Source: an uncultured Desulfosarcina sp.
GTDB taxonomy: Bacteria; Desulfobacterota; Desulfobacteria; Desulfobacterales; Desulfosarcinaceae
Direction: 5' to 3'
DNA: 64,000 nucleotides
Assembly (NCBI GenBank): GCA_963674945.2
Contig: CAXXWQ010000003.1
Location: 2,016,001 to 2,080,000 of the forward strand
How positions within the stretch are numbered: position 1 is the stretch's first letter; the number at the start of each line of letters is the position of its first letter. The notes beneath the pieces are model-generated. The model was given only the letters and a program-made list of their open reading frames with translations, was not told the origin of the DNA and did no database searches. Position numbers and translations under genes: made by a program. Positions 1-7,291 of this stretch are shown in pieces.

Positions 1-897
1 CAATATTTTACAGGCCTCCTCTTCTAAATCCTCATCCCGTGCTTCCTTCAAAGCGTCTCGCAGGGTTTCAAGCTTTTCGTTAAATGCGTCCATCTGGCTT
101 TGCGTCATCTTGGCATTAAGATCACCGTATGGCTGAACCGGCAGGGAGATTGTTAGCCAATCATTATTATCAAAATTATTTAACATCATATCACATAAGG
201 AAATCAGGGCGTTAATATCCTCATATTCACCAGAAAACAAATCCTTATATGGGGAGAACCATTTTACGGCCGCAATTGTAAGGGCAATACTGAACGGTTT
301 GCCTGAATATAGCTTTTGGTCCCGCCACTTTTTAAGATAGCGGATACAGCGGCGCATTTGCGCTTTGTCATTGGCGTCGGTGAATCGGTTGTTAACTTCA
401 TTGATCAAACCCTTGGGGTCGGATATTTCCCAAAATTTTTTTTCGGAGTCTGAAAATTCTTTACCCATGGCAATATCAAGGAGCGATTCATACTGGCGTT
501 TAACATAAATTGCCAAGTCAACATGATAATCTACTTCACCATTTTTTAGATATTCCACGGTAACGCATGGCCGCCTTATCGCGACACTGCGGTTGCCTTT
601 GTTTAACGCGGTCTTTACAATTTTCTTTAATTCGACCGGATCTTCATAATCATCTTTATGGCAATCAAATATGATCCCCTCATCAATGTCATAATTGCCA
701 TCCTTGGGATTAATTCCGGTAAACATAGCATAGCTGCCCTGGTCAAAATTTTCAAAAGCGGGAGCGTCATCAGGTAAGCCGGCTTTCAGGTCATCAATCA
801 ACAATTTCCTTTTTTCGCGCAGGGTTTGATTCTCATTGAAGTTGTCGAGTTTTATTTTATTATGGAACTCAATAAATCGGTTCTGCACCTTAGGCAT
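1..897 (-). CDS. cGAS/DncV-like nucleotidyltransferase (CD-NTase, CBASS cyclase); 3' end truncated by the window edge
   Basis: Manual translation from ATG 897 (RBS AAGGAG), open to position 1: MPKVQNRFIEFHNKIKL...FDQGSYAMFTGINPKDGNYDIDEG...RRPCVTVEY...YHVDLAIY...SDPKGL...RRCIRYLKKWRD. This gives the hGS, DxD and third-Asp Pol-beta NTase motifs in a CD-NTase context. Missing from the ORF track because there is no stop in the window. Confidence 0.88.
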   Translation of the reverse strand, partial: MPKVQNRFIEFHNKIKLDNFNENQTLREKRKLLIDDLKAGLPDDAPAFENFDQGSYAMFTGINPKDGNYDIDEGIIFDCHKDDYEDPVELKKIVKTALNKGNRSVAIRRPCVTVEYLKNGEVDYHVDLAIYVKRQYESLLDIAMGKEFSDSEKKFWEISDPKGLINEVNNRFTDANDKAQMRRCIRYLKKWRDQKLYSGKPFSIALTIAAVKWFSPYKDLFSGEYEDINALISLCDMMLNNFDNNDWLTISLPVQPYGDLNAKMTQSQMDAFNEKLETLRDALKEARDEDLEEEACKIL

Positions 898-997
898 GTT
901 AAATCTCCTTTTACATCGATAGTATTTCTTTAATAAATAATAGATCTAAAACATTATAATCCTTTATGATACCTCTGTTCTTAAATACGAATAATTT

Positions 998-1111
998 ACC
1001 ATAACGCAGCTTATTTGTTTGTCAATACCATATATTGTGCGATATCATCGCAATGGATACAATATAGAGTGCCACAAAGTGGTATGCTACTTTCTTGTTT
1101 AAAAATGTCAG
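998..1111 (-). promoter_or_regulatory. CD-NTase promoter region: two sigma70-like promoters and tandem NrdR-box-like sites
   Basis: Minus strand TTGACA(1025-1020)-16-TATGGT(1003-998) and CTGACA(1111-1106)-16-TAGCAT(1089-1084). Boxes ATACCATATATTGTGC (1025-1040) and ATACAATATAGAGTGC (1057-1072) each match acaCwAtATaTwGtgt at 13/16 and are offset by 32 bp. Confidence 0.6.
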
Positions 1112-1183
1112 TCAAATTATCCGATTCATTCAATACCATTTTTAATAATAATAAGAGGCACATCCACTAAAGAATAATAATTC

Positions 1184-1312
1184 CTATTTTTTGATTTTTA
1201 TAGTTTCAACGACAGCGGTTCTTTTACGTCTTTCCGCTTCTTTCACCGGGATAAATTTACCGGTCCCGGCGTCTCTTCCAATCTTTCTGGTATTTGTTCT
1301 TTTCTTTCCCAT
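1184..1312 (-). CDS. 42-aa basic peptide MGKKRTNTRKIGRDAGTGKFIPVKEAERRKRTAVVETIKIKK
   Basis: ATG 1312 with AAAGGA RBS, TAG 1186-1184. The GRDAxTGxFIxVKEAxRRxxTxVVETI pattern is one I recall from small proteins beside ImmA/IrrE genes. Below the ORF-track cutoff. Confidence 0.7.
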   Translation of the reverse strand: MGKKRTNTRKIGRDAGTGKFIPVKEAERRKRTAVVETIKIKK

Positions 1313-1326
1313 TTCGAAATCCTTTC

Positions 1327-1585
1327 TTAATTGACCGTATAGTATTTCCACGGAATTGCATTCATCGGAACTTGAGATAAAAAGCGCACAATATCCCGAC
1401 GCCCATAATAAGTGGGAGTGCCTCTATGGTTTTGTGCCATTAGAACAACCGGCATATGGAAATAGACTGGCAAAGCTACGAATCGCTTCATTCGCTTGGC
1501 AAGAGCTTTGGGTGACTTGGTGTTTTACCACTACAATGGCAAAAGTTACGTTTTGTTCTTTTATGACCGCTCCTTGAATTCTCAT
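1327..1585 (-). pseudogene. Small conserved hypothetical protein (~86 aa) with a frameshift near 1456
   Basis: Frame 1 reads MRIQGAVIKEQNVTFAIVVVK...FASLFP and the shifted frame reads MPVVLMAQNHRGTPTYYGRRDIVRFLSQVPMNAIPWKYYTVN*. The join CCA-T-ATG lacks 2 nt. Strong RBS (AAGGA) upstream. Confidence 0.65.
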
Positions 1586-1609
1586 TCTATCCTTTCCCTT
1601 TCATATATA

Positions 1610-1688
1610 ATACGATGACGGGTTACAGGTTTTATGATATGGAAGATACATTTCCATCTTCTAATATAATATACGACATGGGGTTACA
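1610..1688. promoter_or_regulatory. Two copies of the ATACGA-N5-GGTTACA motif in the divergent intergenic region
   Basis: ATACGAtgacgGGTTACA at 1610-1627 and ATACGAcatggGGTTACA at 1671-1688; a third copy lies at 4627-4644. Confidence 0.65.
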
Positions 1689-1699
1689 GAGGAGGGGAT

Positions 1700-2224
1700 A
1701 TGGATAAACCAAGATACGGCTATGCCAGGCAACTAGCCAGAAAAGTAATAAAAGATTGTTGTGGTGCTTGCCCGCCGGTTGATTTAAAATCAATCTTAGC
1801 TCAAAAAGGTTTTGAGTATATTGAGGTAGATAACTTTCTTGATGATATCGATGCTTTATTTTTACGTAATGAAAACGACGGAAAAACCTATGCCGCCGTG
1901 AATAAGAACCATCATGTCCATCGACAGCGATTCTCTCTGGCTCATGAATTTGGGCATATTTTGATGAACCATGATCTTAATTACTATCGGCCCTACATTA
2001 CTATTGACGATCCCCCTACAGAGAAAACCCATACCGATGCTGAAGCGGCCTCTGAAAAAGAGGCTAATGCCTTTGCTGGTGAACTCTTAGTGCCGTTAGA
2101 AATGCTAAAGAAGGAATTCGAAAAGACTCCTCCTGATATAAAGCAATTATCAAAGATATTCTGGGTGAGCCCGCAGGTAGCAAGTATCGCTGTGAGCAAC
2201 CATATGAGCGCATTATATAAGTAA
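1700..2224 (+). CDS. ImmA/IrrE (DUF955) family zinc metallopeptidase
   Basis: RQRFSLAHEFGH (HExxH) and EKEANAFAGELLVP motifs, N-terminal PPVD, GGAGG RBS. Confidence 0.93.
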   Translation: MDKPRYGYARQLARKVIKDCCGACPPVDLKSILAQKGFEYIEVDNFLDDIDALFLRNENDGKTYAAVNKNHHVHRQRFSLAHEFGHILMNHDLNYYRPYITIDDPPTEKTHTDAEAASEKEANAFAGELLVPLEMLKKEFEKTPPDIKQLSKIFWVSPQVASIAVSNHMSALYK

Positions 2225-2917
2225 GTCTTTAGCGTCTCTTTTAAGTAATTCCTGTTTTAGGGAATCTATGTAAGCGGATTCGATTTTTTCCGTTTCCACT
2301 CGGCCATGACCCTTCTTTTTTTCAATCGCCGCTTGAAGGGCATCCATGGCGTGTGCTATTCGAGCGCTTTTGTCTCCGGCGTCTGACTTGATCGATGACC
2401 TTGCCATTCCGCTTATTCTTTGCCGTTTAGCCGCATTAGTAGCCAAAAATGCATTCAAAGTAGTAACAATATCAGTGATGGTCAGTCTGAACAATTGCAT
2501 AATATCCGCCATATCTTTAGCCATCAGTTTCAACGGATTGATCTGGCCATTTTCTAATCTCTCAACAAACGAGGATTCTTTATTTAAGGAATGAGCAACC
2601 TGGGAATGTGATAATCCGCTCCTATCTCTGATCAGTTGGAGAAAGCGTCCCAAGGGTAGGCTTGAAATATGTGTTTTAGCGCGAGCTTCCACAATTGCGT
2701 TTTCTGAAGAAGCTTTGGCTACTATATTATAAAAAGTGTCTTTTTCAGTGATTTTCAATTCTGTCGGCTCTATCTGATTAAATAGCCTCTCAAGATTATC
2801 TTCCATGGCGCTGTCAAAAGCACCATTCTCGGCCATGGCCCGCAATTCTGCATCAAACCTCGTCAAATCCAATTTTTTGATTTTATCAATTTGATGTTTT
2901 TTCATTACTGGCCTCAA
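2213..2917 (-). CDS. XRE-family HTH protein with N- and C-terminal extensions (probable peptidase substrate or anti-sigma); start may be ATG 2905
   Basis: LGRFLQLIRDRSGLSHSQVAHSLNKESSFVERLENGQINP is an XRE HTH. Overlaps the 3' end of the sigma gene and converges on the peptidase. Confidence 0.8.
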   Translation of the reverse strand: MRPVMKKHQIDKIKKLDLTRFDAELRAMAENGAFDSAMEDNLERLFNQIEPTELKITEKDTFYNIVAKASSENAIVEARAKTHISSLPLGRFLQLIRDRSGLSHSQVAHSLNKESSFVERLENGQINPLKLMAKDMADIMQLFRLTITDIVTTLNAFLATNAAKRQRISGMARSSIKSDAGDKSARIAHAMDALQAAIEKKKGHGRVETEKIESAYIDSLKQELLKRDAKDLLI

Positions 2918-3341
2918 TCCCGAATCTTTTTTTTATTTTTATAGAAACGCATTGATCTTCGTAAGAATCTAAAATGATTAAAATTTTATCTCTCAATTTA
3001 TTTTTTGCTCGATGATAGGCTGTTTTTACAGCTCCGACGGTTTTGTTTAAAGATTTTGCAATTTCTTTTTGCGGGATGTCACAAGCGCAACATCTTAGAA
3101 TTTCTTGATCAGTTTCACTTAGGCATTCAATAGCTTGGCACAAAATCGTTTGGGGTAGGTTTTGCTCTGAGTTTGCAGGTTCCTTCCAAAATGTTTCAGA
3201 ATCCTGAATCCCTTTCGCGGTCCGTTCATCTAAACTTTGTGATATCGAAGGATCTTTAATTTGCTTTATTTTATCTTTGGCGGTGTTGATGGCTATACGT
3301 ACCACCCAAGCGTTAAAGCTACTGCCTCTATTTAAATCAAT

Positions 3342-4389
3342 CTGGGGTATGCACTTGACTCCAGTGGCCACAACATATAGTGTACCAGTCTATGGAGGAA
3401 GATTACCCCAGAACGTTGATAGAATTTGAAAAACGATTTAGCTCTGAAGCTGGATGCACTGACTATTTGATGGCTCTTAGATGGCCCGAAGGCTTCCGTT
3501 GCCCTCATTGCGGTTCTGCATCCTCGTGGAGAACTAAACGATCCCAGTTTCATTGTACTGATTGTGGAAATCAATCTACGATAACTTCCGGTACAATTTT
3601 TCACGGCACCAGAAAGCCCTTGTCTCTTTGGTTTCGGGCTATGTGGCACATTACAGGTCAGAAGTACGGAGCTAATGCACTTGGGCTTCAGAGAGTACTT
3701 AACCTTGGGAGTTATAATACCGCCTGGCAATGGCTCCATAAACTTCGAAGAGCAATGGTTCGTCCAGGACGTGACCGATTGTCCGGGATTGTTGAAGTTG
3801 ATGAAACCTATGTCGGTGGGAAAAAGTCTGGAAAACGCGGTCGGGGTGCTGAAGGTAAAGCTTTGGTCGGTATTGCCGTGGAGGATAAAGGCCGAAAAGG
3901 AATTGGGCGAATTAGACTCTGGCACCTCGAAGACGCATCGGGAGATAGTCTGACTCAATTTGTACAAGAAATCGCCCAGCCAGGCAGCACCATCAGGACG
4001 GATGATTGGCCCGGCTATAGCAGCCTTGGCGATAAAGGATTTAAGCATATTGCGATTCCATCGCATGACTTGAAGATTGTACATTTGGTAGCGTCGCTCA
4101 TGAAACGATGGTTACTTGGTACTTATCAAGGGGCGGTCAGACCGTCTCATTTGATGTACTATTTGGATGAATTCACATTCAGGTTCAACCGTAGAACATC
4201 AGTGTCTCGCGGAAAACTATTTTACAGGCTGGTCCAACAGGCCGTGATGGTGGACCCTGCCCCAGCTAGTACTCTTAAAGGTGCATCGTTACCGTTTTTG
4301 GAAGGGGCAGCAAATTTAAATCTCGATCCAATTGACGATGACCTGGGCCACAACATATAGTATGTGCTGGATTTAAGTGCATACCCCAG
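3342..4389 (+). mobile_element. IS1595-family insertion sequence, copy 1 (1048 bp)
   Basis: Perfect 15-bp TIRs CTGGGGTATGCACTT/AAGTGCATACCCCAG. Flanks share TTAAATCAA (3332-3340, 4390-4398) with one extra base on the left. Confidence 0.95.
3380..4360 (+). CDS. IS1595-family DDE transposase
   Basis: CPHC/CTDC zinc ribbon, VEVDETYVGG, RTDDW and YLDEFTFRFNRR motifs. Confidence 0.95.
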   Translation: MYQSMEEDYPRTLIEFEKRFSSEAGCTDYLMALRWPEGFRCPHCGSASSWRTKRSQFHCTDCGNQSTITSGTIFHGTRKPLSLWFRAMWHITGQKYGANALGLQRVLNLGSYNTAWQWLHKLRRAMVRPGRDRLSGIVEVDETYVGGKKSGKRGRGAEGKALVGIAVEDKGRKGIGRIRLWHLEDASGDSLTQFVQEIAQPGSTIRTDDWPGYSSLGDKGFKHIAIPSHDLKIVHLVASLMKRWLLGTYQGAVRPSHLMYYLDEFTFRFNRRTSVSRGKLFYRLVQQAVMVDPAPASTLKGASLPFLEGAANLNLDPIDDDLGHNI

Positions 4390-4626
4390 TTAAATCAAAT
4401 TTACCAATATTTTTAACAACTTTGTAAAGGCTGTCATTTACCACTTCCAGGCTATCTTGGTGTGATAATCCGTATGATTTGGTCAAAGATAATAACTTGC
4501 CGGAATATCTATCAACCAATAACTTCAGGCAGATAGGATCATTTGCCCTAATACCAAGAACAAGGTCAGAGTCTTTTGTTTGCGCATCCATCTTTATCCG
4601 CATTTGCTTTCATTCTTTTTTATACA

Positions 4627-4644
4627 ATACGAAAGTTGGTTACA
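4627..4644. promoter_or_regulatory. Third ATACGA-N5-GGTTACA motif, directly upstream of the ECF sigma gene
   Basis: ATACGAaagttGGTTACA, 24 bp upstream of the sigma start and in the same orientation relative to minus-strand genes as the 1610 copy. Confidence 0.6.
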
Positions 4645-6367: not shown

Positions 6368-7291
6368 ATGGAATCCAATATACAATTCAAATACGAGGTA
6401 GCGCTGACATTCGCCGGCGAAGACCGCGCCTTTGCCGAAGCCGTGGCCACAGGCCTAAAATCTGCCGGCGTAAACGTTTTTTACGACGATTTCTATATCG
6501 AGGACTTATGGGGACAGGATTTAAGCGTCAAACTGAGGGACGTTTACCGCCGGTCAAGCCAATTCTGTATCATGATCATCTCAGAAAACTATGTCCGCAA
6601 AATGTGGCCCAGCCATGAGCGCCAGCAGGCCATTGAACGAATGATACAGGATCATGGCAAAACATACATCCTGCCCGTCCGGCTTAATGGCTTTAAAGGG
6701 GAAGTTCCGGGCTTTTCTGACTCAATCAGCTACCTGGCCGTGAATAGTAACGACCCGCAAATTGTCGTGGACGCCTTTCTTAGAAAAATCGGCCGAAAAC
6801 CCGATTCTCCTAAAAAAACCAAAACAAGACAGGAAATGCCTAAAATCCGTCTTCCCAAAATGAAAAAGTCCTATACGGATAGAGAAAAAAACCAATTCCT
6901 AAAAGCCTCATTTACCGAAATAGTCAATATTATTGACAGCTTTGCCAGCGGCACCAAAGACGAATATCCTCATTTTGATTACGAGATGGAAAAGATAACC
7001 TCCCGGAAAGTACTGTTCACTCTTTATAATAATGACCAGCAAGTAACCCAGTTCAAAATCTGGATTGGCGGCATCTCAGGGGGGAATTCCATTGCTTTTT
7101 CCCACGGGCGAAATGTCAACGTAGATAATGACAATACCATGAATGAGTCAATATCCATAGAAGAGCACGAAGGCGAACTCAAATTAAAACCAATGGGATT
7201 TGGCCTGTTCGGCAATAATGCTGACAAACCAATGTCGCCCCGACAGTCAGCGGATTACCTTTGGGAAGTTGTTACCAAACATCTGCAATAA
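6368..7291 (+). CDS. TIR-domain protein (TIR_2/TcpC-like N-terminus) with an uncharacterised C-terminal domain
   Basis: YEVALTFAGEDR...VFYDDF...LWGQDL...ISENYVRKMWPSHER (WxxxE catalytic Glu)...YILPVRL. Confidence 0.88.
   Translation: MESNIQFKYEVALTFAGEDRAFAEAVATGLKSAGVNVFYDDFYIEDLWGQDLSVKLRDVYRRSSQFCIMIISENYVRKMWPSHERQQAIERMIQDHGKTYILPVRLNGFKGEVPGFSDSISYLAVNSNDPQIVVDAFLRKIGRKPDSPKKTKTRQEMPKIRLPKMKKSYTDREKNQFLKASFTEIVNIIDSFASGTKDEYPHFDYEMEKITSRKVLFTLYNNDQQVTQFKIWIGGISGGNSIAFSHGRNVNVDNDNTMNESISIEEHEGELKLKPMGFGLFGNNADKPMSPRQSADYLWEVVTKHLQ

Follow-up and report, generated by a model that had tools for sequence, protein, structure and literature searches.

The question raised by this locus is whether NrdR, the dATP-reading regulator of ribonucleotide reductase (RNR) genes, also controls an anti-phage CBASS operon. 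The operon lies on the minus strand and runs off the left end of the window, the whole stretch of 64,000 nucleotides analysed here. The first-pass annotation had described two 16-mers at 1025-1040 and 1057-1072, offset by 32 bp. Re-scored against the quoted consensus acaCwAtATaTwGtgt, each again matches at 13/16 positions. The features around them are as follows.

1..897, minus strand: CD-NTase, 331 aa, first gene of the type II CBASS operon; its end lies 98 bp beyond the left edge of the window
G000:C3:2012582-2016897, minus strand: the type II CBASS operon, CD-NTase then Cap2, Cap3 and 2TM-SAVED
Left of the window: Cap2 (E1-E2, 586 aa), Cap3 (JAB, 174 aa) and 2TM-SAVED (357 aa)
998..1025, minus strand: P1, predicted sigma70 promoter for the CBASS operon, TTGACA-16-TATGGT, 10/12 in the promoter scan
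1019..1048, plus strand: TTGTCA-18-TATCAT, a divergent promoter candidate that overlaps the proximal box and is absent from the first-pass annotation
1025..1040, no strand: promoter-proximal NrdR-type box ATACCATATATTGTGC, 18.0 bits; base 1025 is shared with the minus-strand TTGACA -35, as its first T
1041..1056, no strand: 16-bp spacer, three helical turns centre to centre, sequence not conserved
1057..1072, no strand: distal NrdR-type box ATACAATATAGAGTGC, 13.4 bits
1072..1082, no strand: CCAC-N3-GTGG palindrome adjoining the distal box, 10/11 bases kept in the homologous locus L200
1084..1111, minus strand: P2, weak upstream promoter candidate, CTGACA-16-TAGCAT, 9/12 in the promoter scan

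All four genes of the type II CBASS set match PADLOC models (E 6e-126, 5e-125, 2e-50 and, for 2TM-SAVED, 4e-35). The CD-NTase active-site motif, DIDEG, is encoded at about 675-690 on the minus strand. Its E is found in 1 of 80 motif-bearing CD-NTases, the same position being V in L200 and L214 and D in seven. The GC content of the CBASS region is 40%, versus 51% for the genome. Some 10-14 kb beyond the left edge of the window there are Mu-like transposase and repressor-type genes (L002, G000:C3:2004001-2006500), and a TIR-domain gene at 6368-7291 with ThsB-like matches in PADLOC is part of the same defence-rich region.

The boxes lie 128-175 bp upstream of the CD-NTase, in an intergenic region of 27-28% GC, and both contain the conserved C4 and G13. 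The host genome (7.08 Mb) holds 74 single sites with at least 13/16 matches to the quoted consensus, and the CBASS boxes are its sole pair with 13/16 in each member at any spacing of 16-80 bp. The proximal box matches letter for letter a box that precedes an RNR gene of another genome (G002, L076). At position 11, where the matrix described below has 94% T, G stands in the distal box, and L200 deviates identically. No operator variants were seen among three DNA contig sets compared over 1-2300, one of which may be the source of the window. A palindrome, TGCGAT-ATC-ATCGCA (1038-1052), lies mostly inside the box spacer; it was considered as a CRP/HcpR-type or local-regulator operator and rejected, being lost in L200.

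A matrix was derived from 58 RNR upstream regions of the host's order, using regions of more than 300 bp and leaving the host itself out. De novo motif search from 400 random seeds returned ACACAATATATTGTGT as the top motif, and the regions contain 32 pairs at 30, 31 and 32 bp (6, 20 and 6, respectively). The matrix consists of 61 distinct paired sites, with unpaired sites left out. On this scale the CBASS pair scores 31.5 bits (18.0+13.4) and ranks third in the genome. The training RNR pairs range from 22.8 to 40.6 bits, a range that includes the CBASS pair, and the two host RNR pairs, held out of training, both score lower (29.0 and 24.5 bits). At 28 bits or more the host genome has four pairs at 30-32 bp and none at 40 other spacings (18-60 bp), while 20,000 intergenic dinucleotide shuffles gave none at this threshold and two at 25 bits or more. 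Pairs with long spacers (40-43 bp) are absent from the host at 18 bits or more. The first-pass annotation had proposed scoring against genome background, and in that comparison the pair falls in the range of RNR operators and above both the shuffles and the off-spacing controls. A NrdR-like 16-mer (14-18 bits) was also seen within the nrdD coding region at five loci, including L049, L059, L068 and L071. It covers the ATP-cone IQDIV codons (offset -165 relative to the NRDD domain) and could be a coincidence of the codons; it was kept out of training because only paired sites were used.

An intact nrdR is present in the host as a single copy at G000:C2:233600-234064, a point that the first-pass annotation had left to be confirmed (TIGR00244, 194 bits, Zn-ribbon and ATP-cone). 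The host protein retains both CxxC pairs, D15, R17, R26-29 and R37, which the accessible part of PMC9110341 names for DNA contact, and has K at position 12, where that source has R. The host carries three large-subunit RNR genes and nrdD; one of the former shares with nrdD a promoter containing a 31-bp pair at C4:1422049-1422095. No class I small subunit was found in the host genome, which makes the hydroxyurea assay suggested in the first-pass annotation a weak one for this host. The host looks like a sulfate reducer, with genes that we take from their sequences to be dsrA and aprB.

The collections searched contain one close homologue of the CD-NTase, L200 (79% identity), and the conservation footprint rests on it. 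Close homologues were a further check named in the first-pass annotation, and L200 keeps both boxes as well as the TTGACA of P1. The promoter regions align at about 60% identity over 212 columns; box identity is 14/16 for the distal and 12/16 for the proximal box, and the pair scores 28.9 bits. TTGACA is followed by TATGCT at 16 bp, with 6/16 bases of the P1 -35/-10 spacer common to L200 and the window. The spacer between the boxes has diverged in sequence and lost one base, leaving 15 bp. Random substitution at 30% and 40% kept an L200-level score in 0.35% and 0.035% of trials, respectively. The L200 alignment does not retain P2, the plus-strand -10 or the central palindrome. A DNA search with window positions 700-1700 gave no match in 40 relatives (24 of the genus), and at the protein level the order (200 genomes) and the family (64) yielded nothing closer than homologues at 31-35%.

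Paired boxes are not a family-wide trait of CD-NTase homologues. The pair is absent from 72 of 73 distant homologue loci (31-55% identity, some with less than 300 bp upstream), whose promoters may not be homologous to the CBASS promoter of the window. It occurs in 0/35 GTDB loci and, among the metagenome loci besides L200, only in L214 (1/38); eight of the 40 metagenome loci have less than 300 bp upstream, and L203 is a probable duplicate of a GTDB locus. The L214 pair (29.3 bits) lies 131 bp upstream, and in the tree L214 falls among Bacillota proteins.

Paired boxes at other CD-NTases, which the first-pass annotation had suggested looking for, do recur within the phylum. Among 34 other CD-NTase loci scanned over 1.5 kb upstream, six have a pair of at least 16 bits, five of at least 19, four of at least 21 and three of at least 25, all of these counts being lower bounds since several operon starts lie beyond 1.5 kb. 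The host genome-wide rate predicts 0.08 loci at 19 bits or more, versus the five seen, and 12 off-spacing triplets gave one match in total at this threshold. Control loci of the same order show no such pairs (0/30 hsdM of type I R-M, often not the first gene, and 0/30 Xer/integrase). The contrast of 5/34 with 0/60 gives p of about 0.005 by hand calculation, overstated since L187 and L188 are kin. One more example, a CapV-first CBASS with a 24.9-bit pair (L178), was found through the pattern search. A quick tree was built from 96 CD-NTases; some of its long branches (L257, L178) may be wrongly grouped. Ten rows of this tree carry a pair, and their distribution takes six changes to explain, of which strong branches force five or more, so the operator has been gained or lost repeatedly.

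These features make it very probable that the CBASS box pair is a real NrdR operator. Because the pair is located upstream of a conserved -35 and does not straddle it, the sign of control is uncertain; in 27/32 RNR promoters of the order TTGAC is found between the boxes, and at CBASS it starts after the second box. The proposal of the first-pass annotation that NrdR represses CBASS therefore divides: the operator passes the computational tests, but repression, though likely, has this layout against it. The two minus-strand promoters of that annotation both appear in the scan, but only P1 is kept in L200. Single promoter calls are weak because the scan total, 13 matches in 3 kb, is near the 8.8 +/- 3.2 expected by chance. 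The operator overlaps P1 by 1 bp of the -35 and would overlap the initial transcript of P2 only if P2 is real.

The best overall explanation, with a probability of roughly 0.6, is that NrdR loaded with dATP and ATP dampens P1 and releases it when dATP falls. That NrdR acts on P1 as a repressor, the likeliest reading of the layout, is about as probable. In this mechanism the loaded tetramer would occupy both boxes, contact the first base of the -35 and cover the upstream contacts of RNA polymerase, thereby repressing. As dATP fell NrdR would leave P1, and a drain of dATP by DNA synthesis would yield more CD-NTase, Cap2, Cap3 and 2TM-SAVED effector. CBASS is likely turned up at low dATP because its boxes match likely NrdR sites of the usual targets. 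The accessible part of PMC9110341 describes a dATP/ATP-loaded tetramer that sits on two boxes, bends the DNA sharply and releases as dATP falls, with dATP the sole dNTP bound. Strongest binding is reported for two boxes with 15-17 bp spacers (PMC12051234, as far as its text is available). In other bacteria NrdR kinks DNA at each box, and NrdR with ATP only does not bind DNA.

More speculatively, phage replication could be the dATP drain, priming the abortive-infection system, or phage DNA with NrdR boxes could titrate the repressor. Phage infection is a doubtful physiological trigger. No paper was found reporting that infection lowers dATP enough to free NrdR, and in P. aeruginosa the lowering of dNTPs by hydroxyurea led to no significant NrdR-dependent change, according to the available part of PMC4409342. 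Tentative to the same degree is the suggestion that CBASS and other defence operons were repeatedly wired into the NrdR regulon, with dATP drain or titration as the alarm.

Operator and repression would be the same, and the trigger alone would differ, if NrdR coupled P1 to growth state, leaving defence genes on in replicating and off in resting cells. We hold this to be possible, at well under even odds. It is favoured by the many non-defence genes that also follow such pairs, both in the order and in the host. The eight best pairs of the host include RNR twice, and three of the eight precede defence operons (Zorya III, CBASS and SspBCD-PbeA). Besides those of CBASS and RNR, the eight are:

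G000:C3:473856: pair before Zorya III, 34.1 bits, best in the host
G000:C4:435282: pair before a sigma54 activator, 33.3 bits, second-best in the host
G000:C3:2374726: pair before an unannotated membrane gene and then a PDC-M48B-like gene, 24.3 bits
Among the host top eight: pair before a minC-like gene, 23.7 bits
G000:C4:2405584: pair before SspBCD-PbeA, 22.8 bits

Weaker host pairs precede dsrA, minC and minD (G000:C4:2283196, 1640747 and 1556146), and pairs also lie between PhoH-like and DUF1786 genes (L130, L160, L163 and G000:C4:1447290); the host names dsrA, minC, minD and PhoH-like are presumed from the sequences.

Across genomes, the strict paired pattern was found in 106/151, and a reversed control in one. 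Seventy-five of the 194 pattern sites were examined, 73 of them outside the host. Among these listed non-host sites, 25/73 precede RNR genes (21 by N-termini, four by position) and 4/73 have a clear defence-model match downstream (XhoI-type REase, ThsB, CapV and PDC-S01), in a PADLOC scan of 79 proteins and a Pfam scan of 41 that left out RNRs and doubtful ORFs. Other listed targets are recD2 (three), PhoH-like/DUF1786 (three), glycosyltransferases (three) and a gene that we take to be aprB (two). The recD2 pairs are L121, L151 and L166, and those near aprB are L122 and L182. From these predicted sites the NrdR regulon looks wide in the host's order, with CBASS an enriched minority member, and it has possibly been expanded there. 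The growth-state coupling is opposed by the enrichment of CD-NTase loci far above hsdM, integrase and genome background, and by operator changes on separate CD-NTase branches.

The layout upstream of the -35 bears on a third possibility, that NrdR activates or fine-tunes P1 and CBASS rises at high dATP, as during stalled replication or host DNA breakdown. From the P1 coordinates the proximal box is centred near -41.5, which is the position of a class II activator, and the same layout recurs at L200, L214, L188 and L243. P. aeruginosa topA is reportedly NrdR-activated (PMC4409342, in the part available). However, the box overlaps a perfect P1 -35, and the pairs of three other CBASS loci (L257, L187 and L186) overlap the promoter core like repressor sites. 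Moreover, CapH represses from upstream of the -35 in the accessible text of 10.1101/2022.04.27.489752, and what is available of PMC12051234 questions the topA case. We consider activation unlikely.

A box inside the 18-bp spacer of TTGTCA-18-TATCAT is the usual repressor layout, and the operator might instead serve this divergent plus-strand promoter at 1019-1048 and not CBASS. At the end of its contig, L200 has an apparent start of a divergent gene (GGAGG by eye). However, the plus-strand -10 is not kept there while that of P1 is, and the first plus-strand gene of the window is 650 bp away. This makes the divergent promoter an improbable target.

The operon is also adjoined by Peptidase_M78, HTH and sigma genes, so that a local regulator of CapH/CapP type, an HTH protein with an IrrE-like peptidase, could bind the repeats or the central palindrome in place of NrdR. 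The local module (1700-4603) comprises an HTH gene, the following peptidase and a sigma gene that an IS1595-family element interrupts.

1700-2224, plus strand: Peptidase_M78 gene, PADLOC capP E 2e-23 over profile positions 5-138 of 242

This IrrE-like peptidase has 174 aa and is not a full-length CapP with a C-terminal GAF domain. The shared-promoter arrangement of CapH/CapP is likewise not found, the peptidase being on the opposite strand but 800 bp away, with two small minus-strand ORFs between it and the operator and the HTH gene convergent with it. The module has a separate motif, ATACGA-N5-GGTTACA, three exact copies of which flank it (1610-1627, 1671-1688 and 4627-4644), with no other copies in the genome and none in the box pair. 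The loss of the central palindrome in L200 and the presence of the same kind of pair at unrelated CBASS loci further oppose a local regulator, which is very improbable. Read-through into CBASS from the minus-strand side of the module is a possible second input. The two small ORFs (1187-1584, minus strand, read by eye) encode a 42-aa protein of the 'RKIGRDAGTGKFIPVKEA' type and an apparently frameshifted gene of the 'MRIQGAVIKEQ' type. The IS1595-family element (about 3342-4389) has three copies in the window and, counted by paired end sites, 12 in the genome. The copies carry a strong NrdR-like box just inside each terminal repeat (19.3 and 18.7 bits; 3368-3383 and 4348-4363, 12197/13177, 22085/23065) with no partner at 30-32 bp, and the left box overlaps a promoter-like site of the transposase, TTGACT-17-TAGTGT.

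The low GC of the region would lend itself to chance matches, but the L200 footprint, the shuffles and the controls at other spacings refute this explanation.

The preferred reading, dampening of P1 by dATP-loaded NrdR, bears on an open question in the control of abortive infection, namely how toxic systems stay quiet and are then induced. In the literature consulted, the regulators described for such systems are for the most part local and respond to DNA damage. If the reading is true, a core regulator of nearly universal occurrence would link immunity with dATP supply, and an RNR-centred regulon would be widened; if the alarm reading also held, a core nucleotide sensor would serve sulfate reducers, and other bacteria too, as a master switch of immunity. 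NrdR regulons are among the most conserved and are RNR-centred (PMC5343134, accessible part). The mostly non-subscription literature searched yielded no report of CBASS or any other defence system being controlled by NrdR. The element appears to be of a known kind, and what seems new is its placement on a CBASS promoter.

The comparison set is formed by the RNR operators of S. coelicolor (nrdRJ/nrdAB), E. coli, Listeria and Streptococcus, as described in the available parts of PMC9110341 and PMC12051234. Like these, the CBASS site has two 16-bp palindromic boxes with conserved C and G, a 16-bp spacer, a score in the RNR range, an adjacent sigma70 promoter and NrdR in the host. It differs in that its target is anti-phage and in that the -35 lies at the end of the pair and not between its boxes, as it does in 27/32 RNR promoters of the order. 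A NrdR box before a non-RNR gene has a precedent in P. aeruginosa topA (PMC4409342, in part). However, that is a single box with reported activation before a housekeeping gene, whereas here a canonical pair precedes a defence operon. Stress-relieved repression of defence operons is shared with CapH/CapP (10.1101/2022.04.27.489752), CapW, CapK/CapS and RptR, as far as the accessible accounts go, and CapH binding upstream of the -35 resembles the position of the CBASS pair. Those regulators are encoded beside their systems, whereas NrdR is a core chromosomal regulator, and CapH/CapP, CapW and CapK/CapS respond to DNA damage whereas NrdR reads dATP. The extension of a metabolic regulator to immunity recalls the CcpA regulon of Streptococcaceae, predicted to include CRISPR-Cas in the accessible part of PMC3616900. 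That case was likewise drawn from comparative genomics, but concerns carbon status and a different system, whereas the signal here would be dNTP status.
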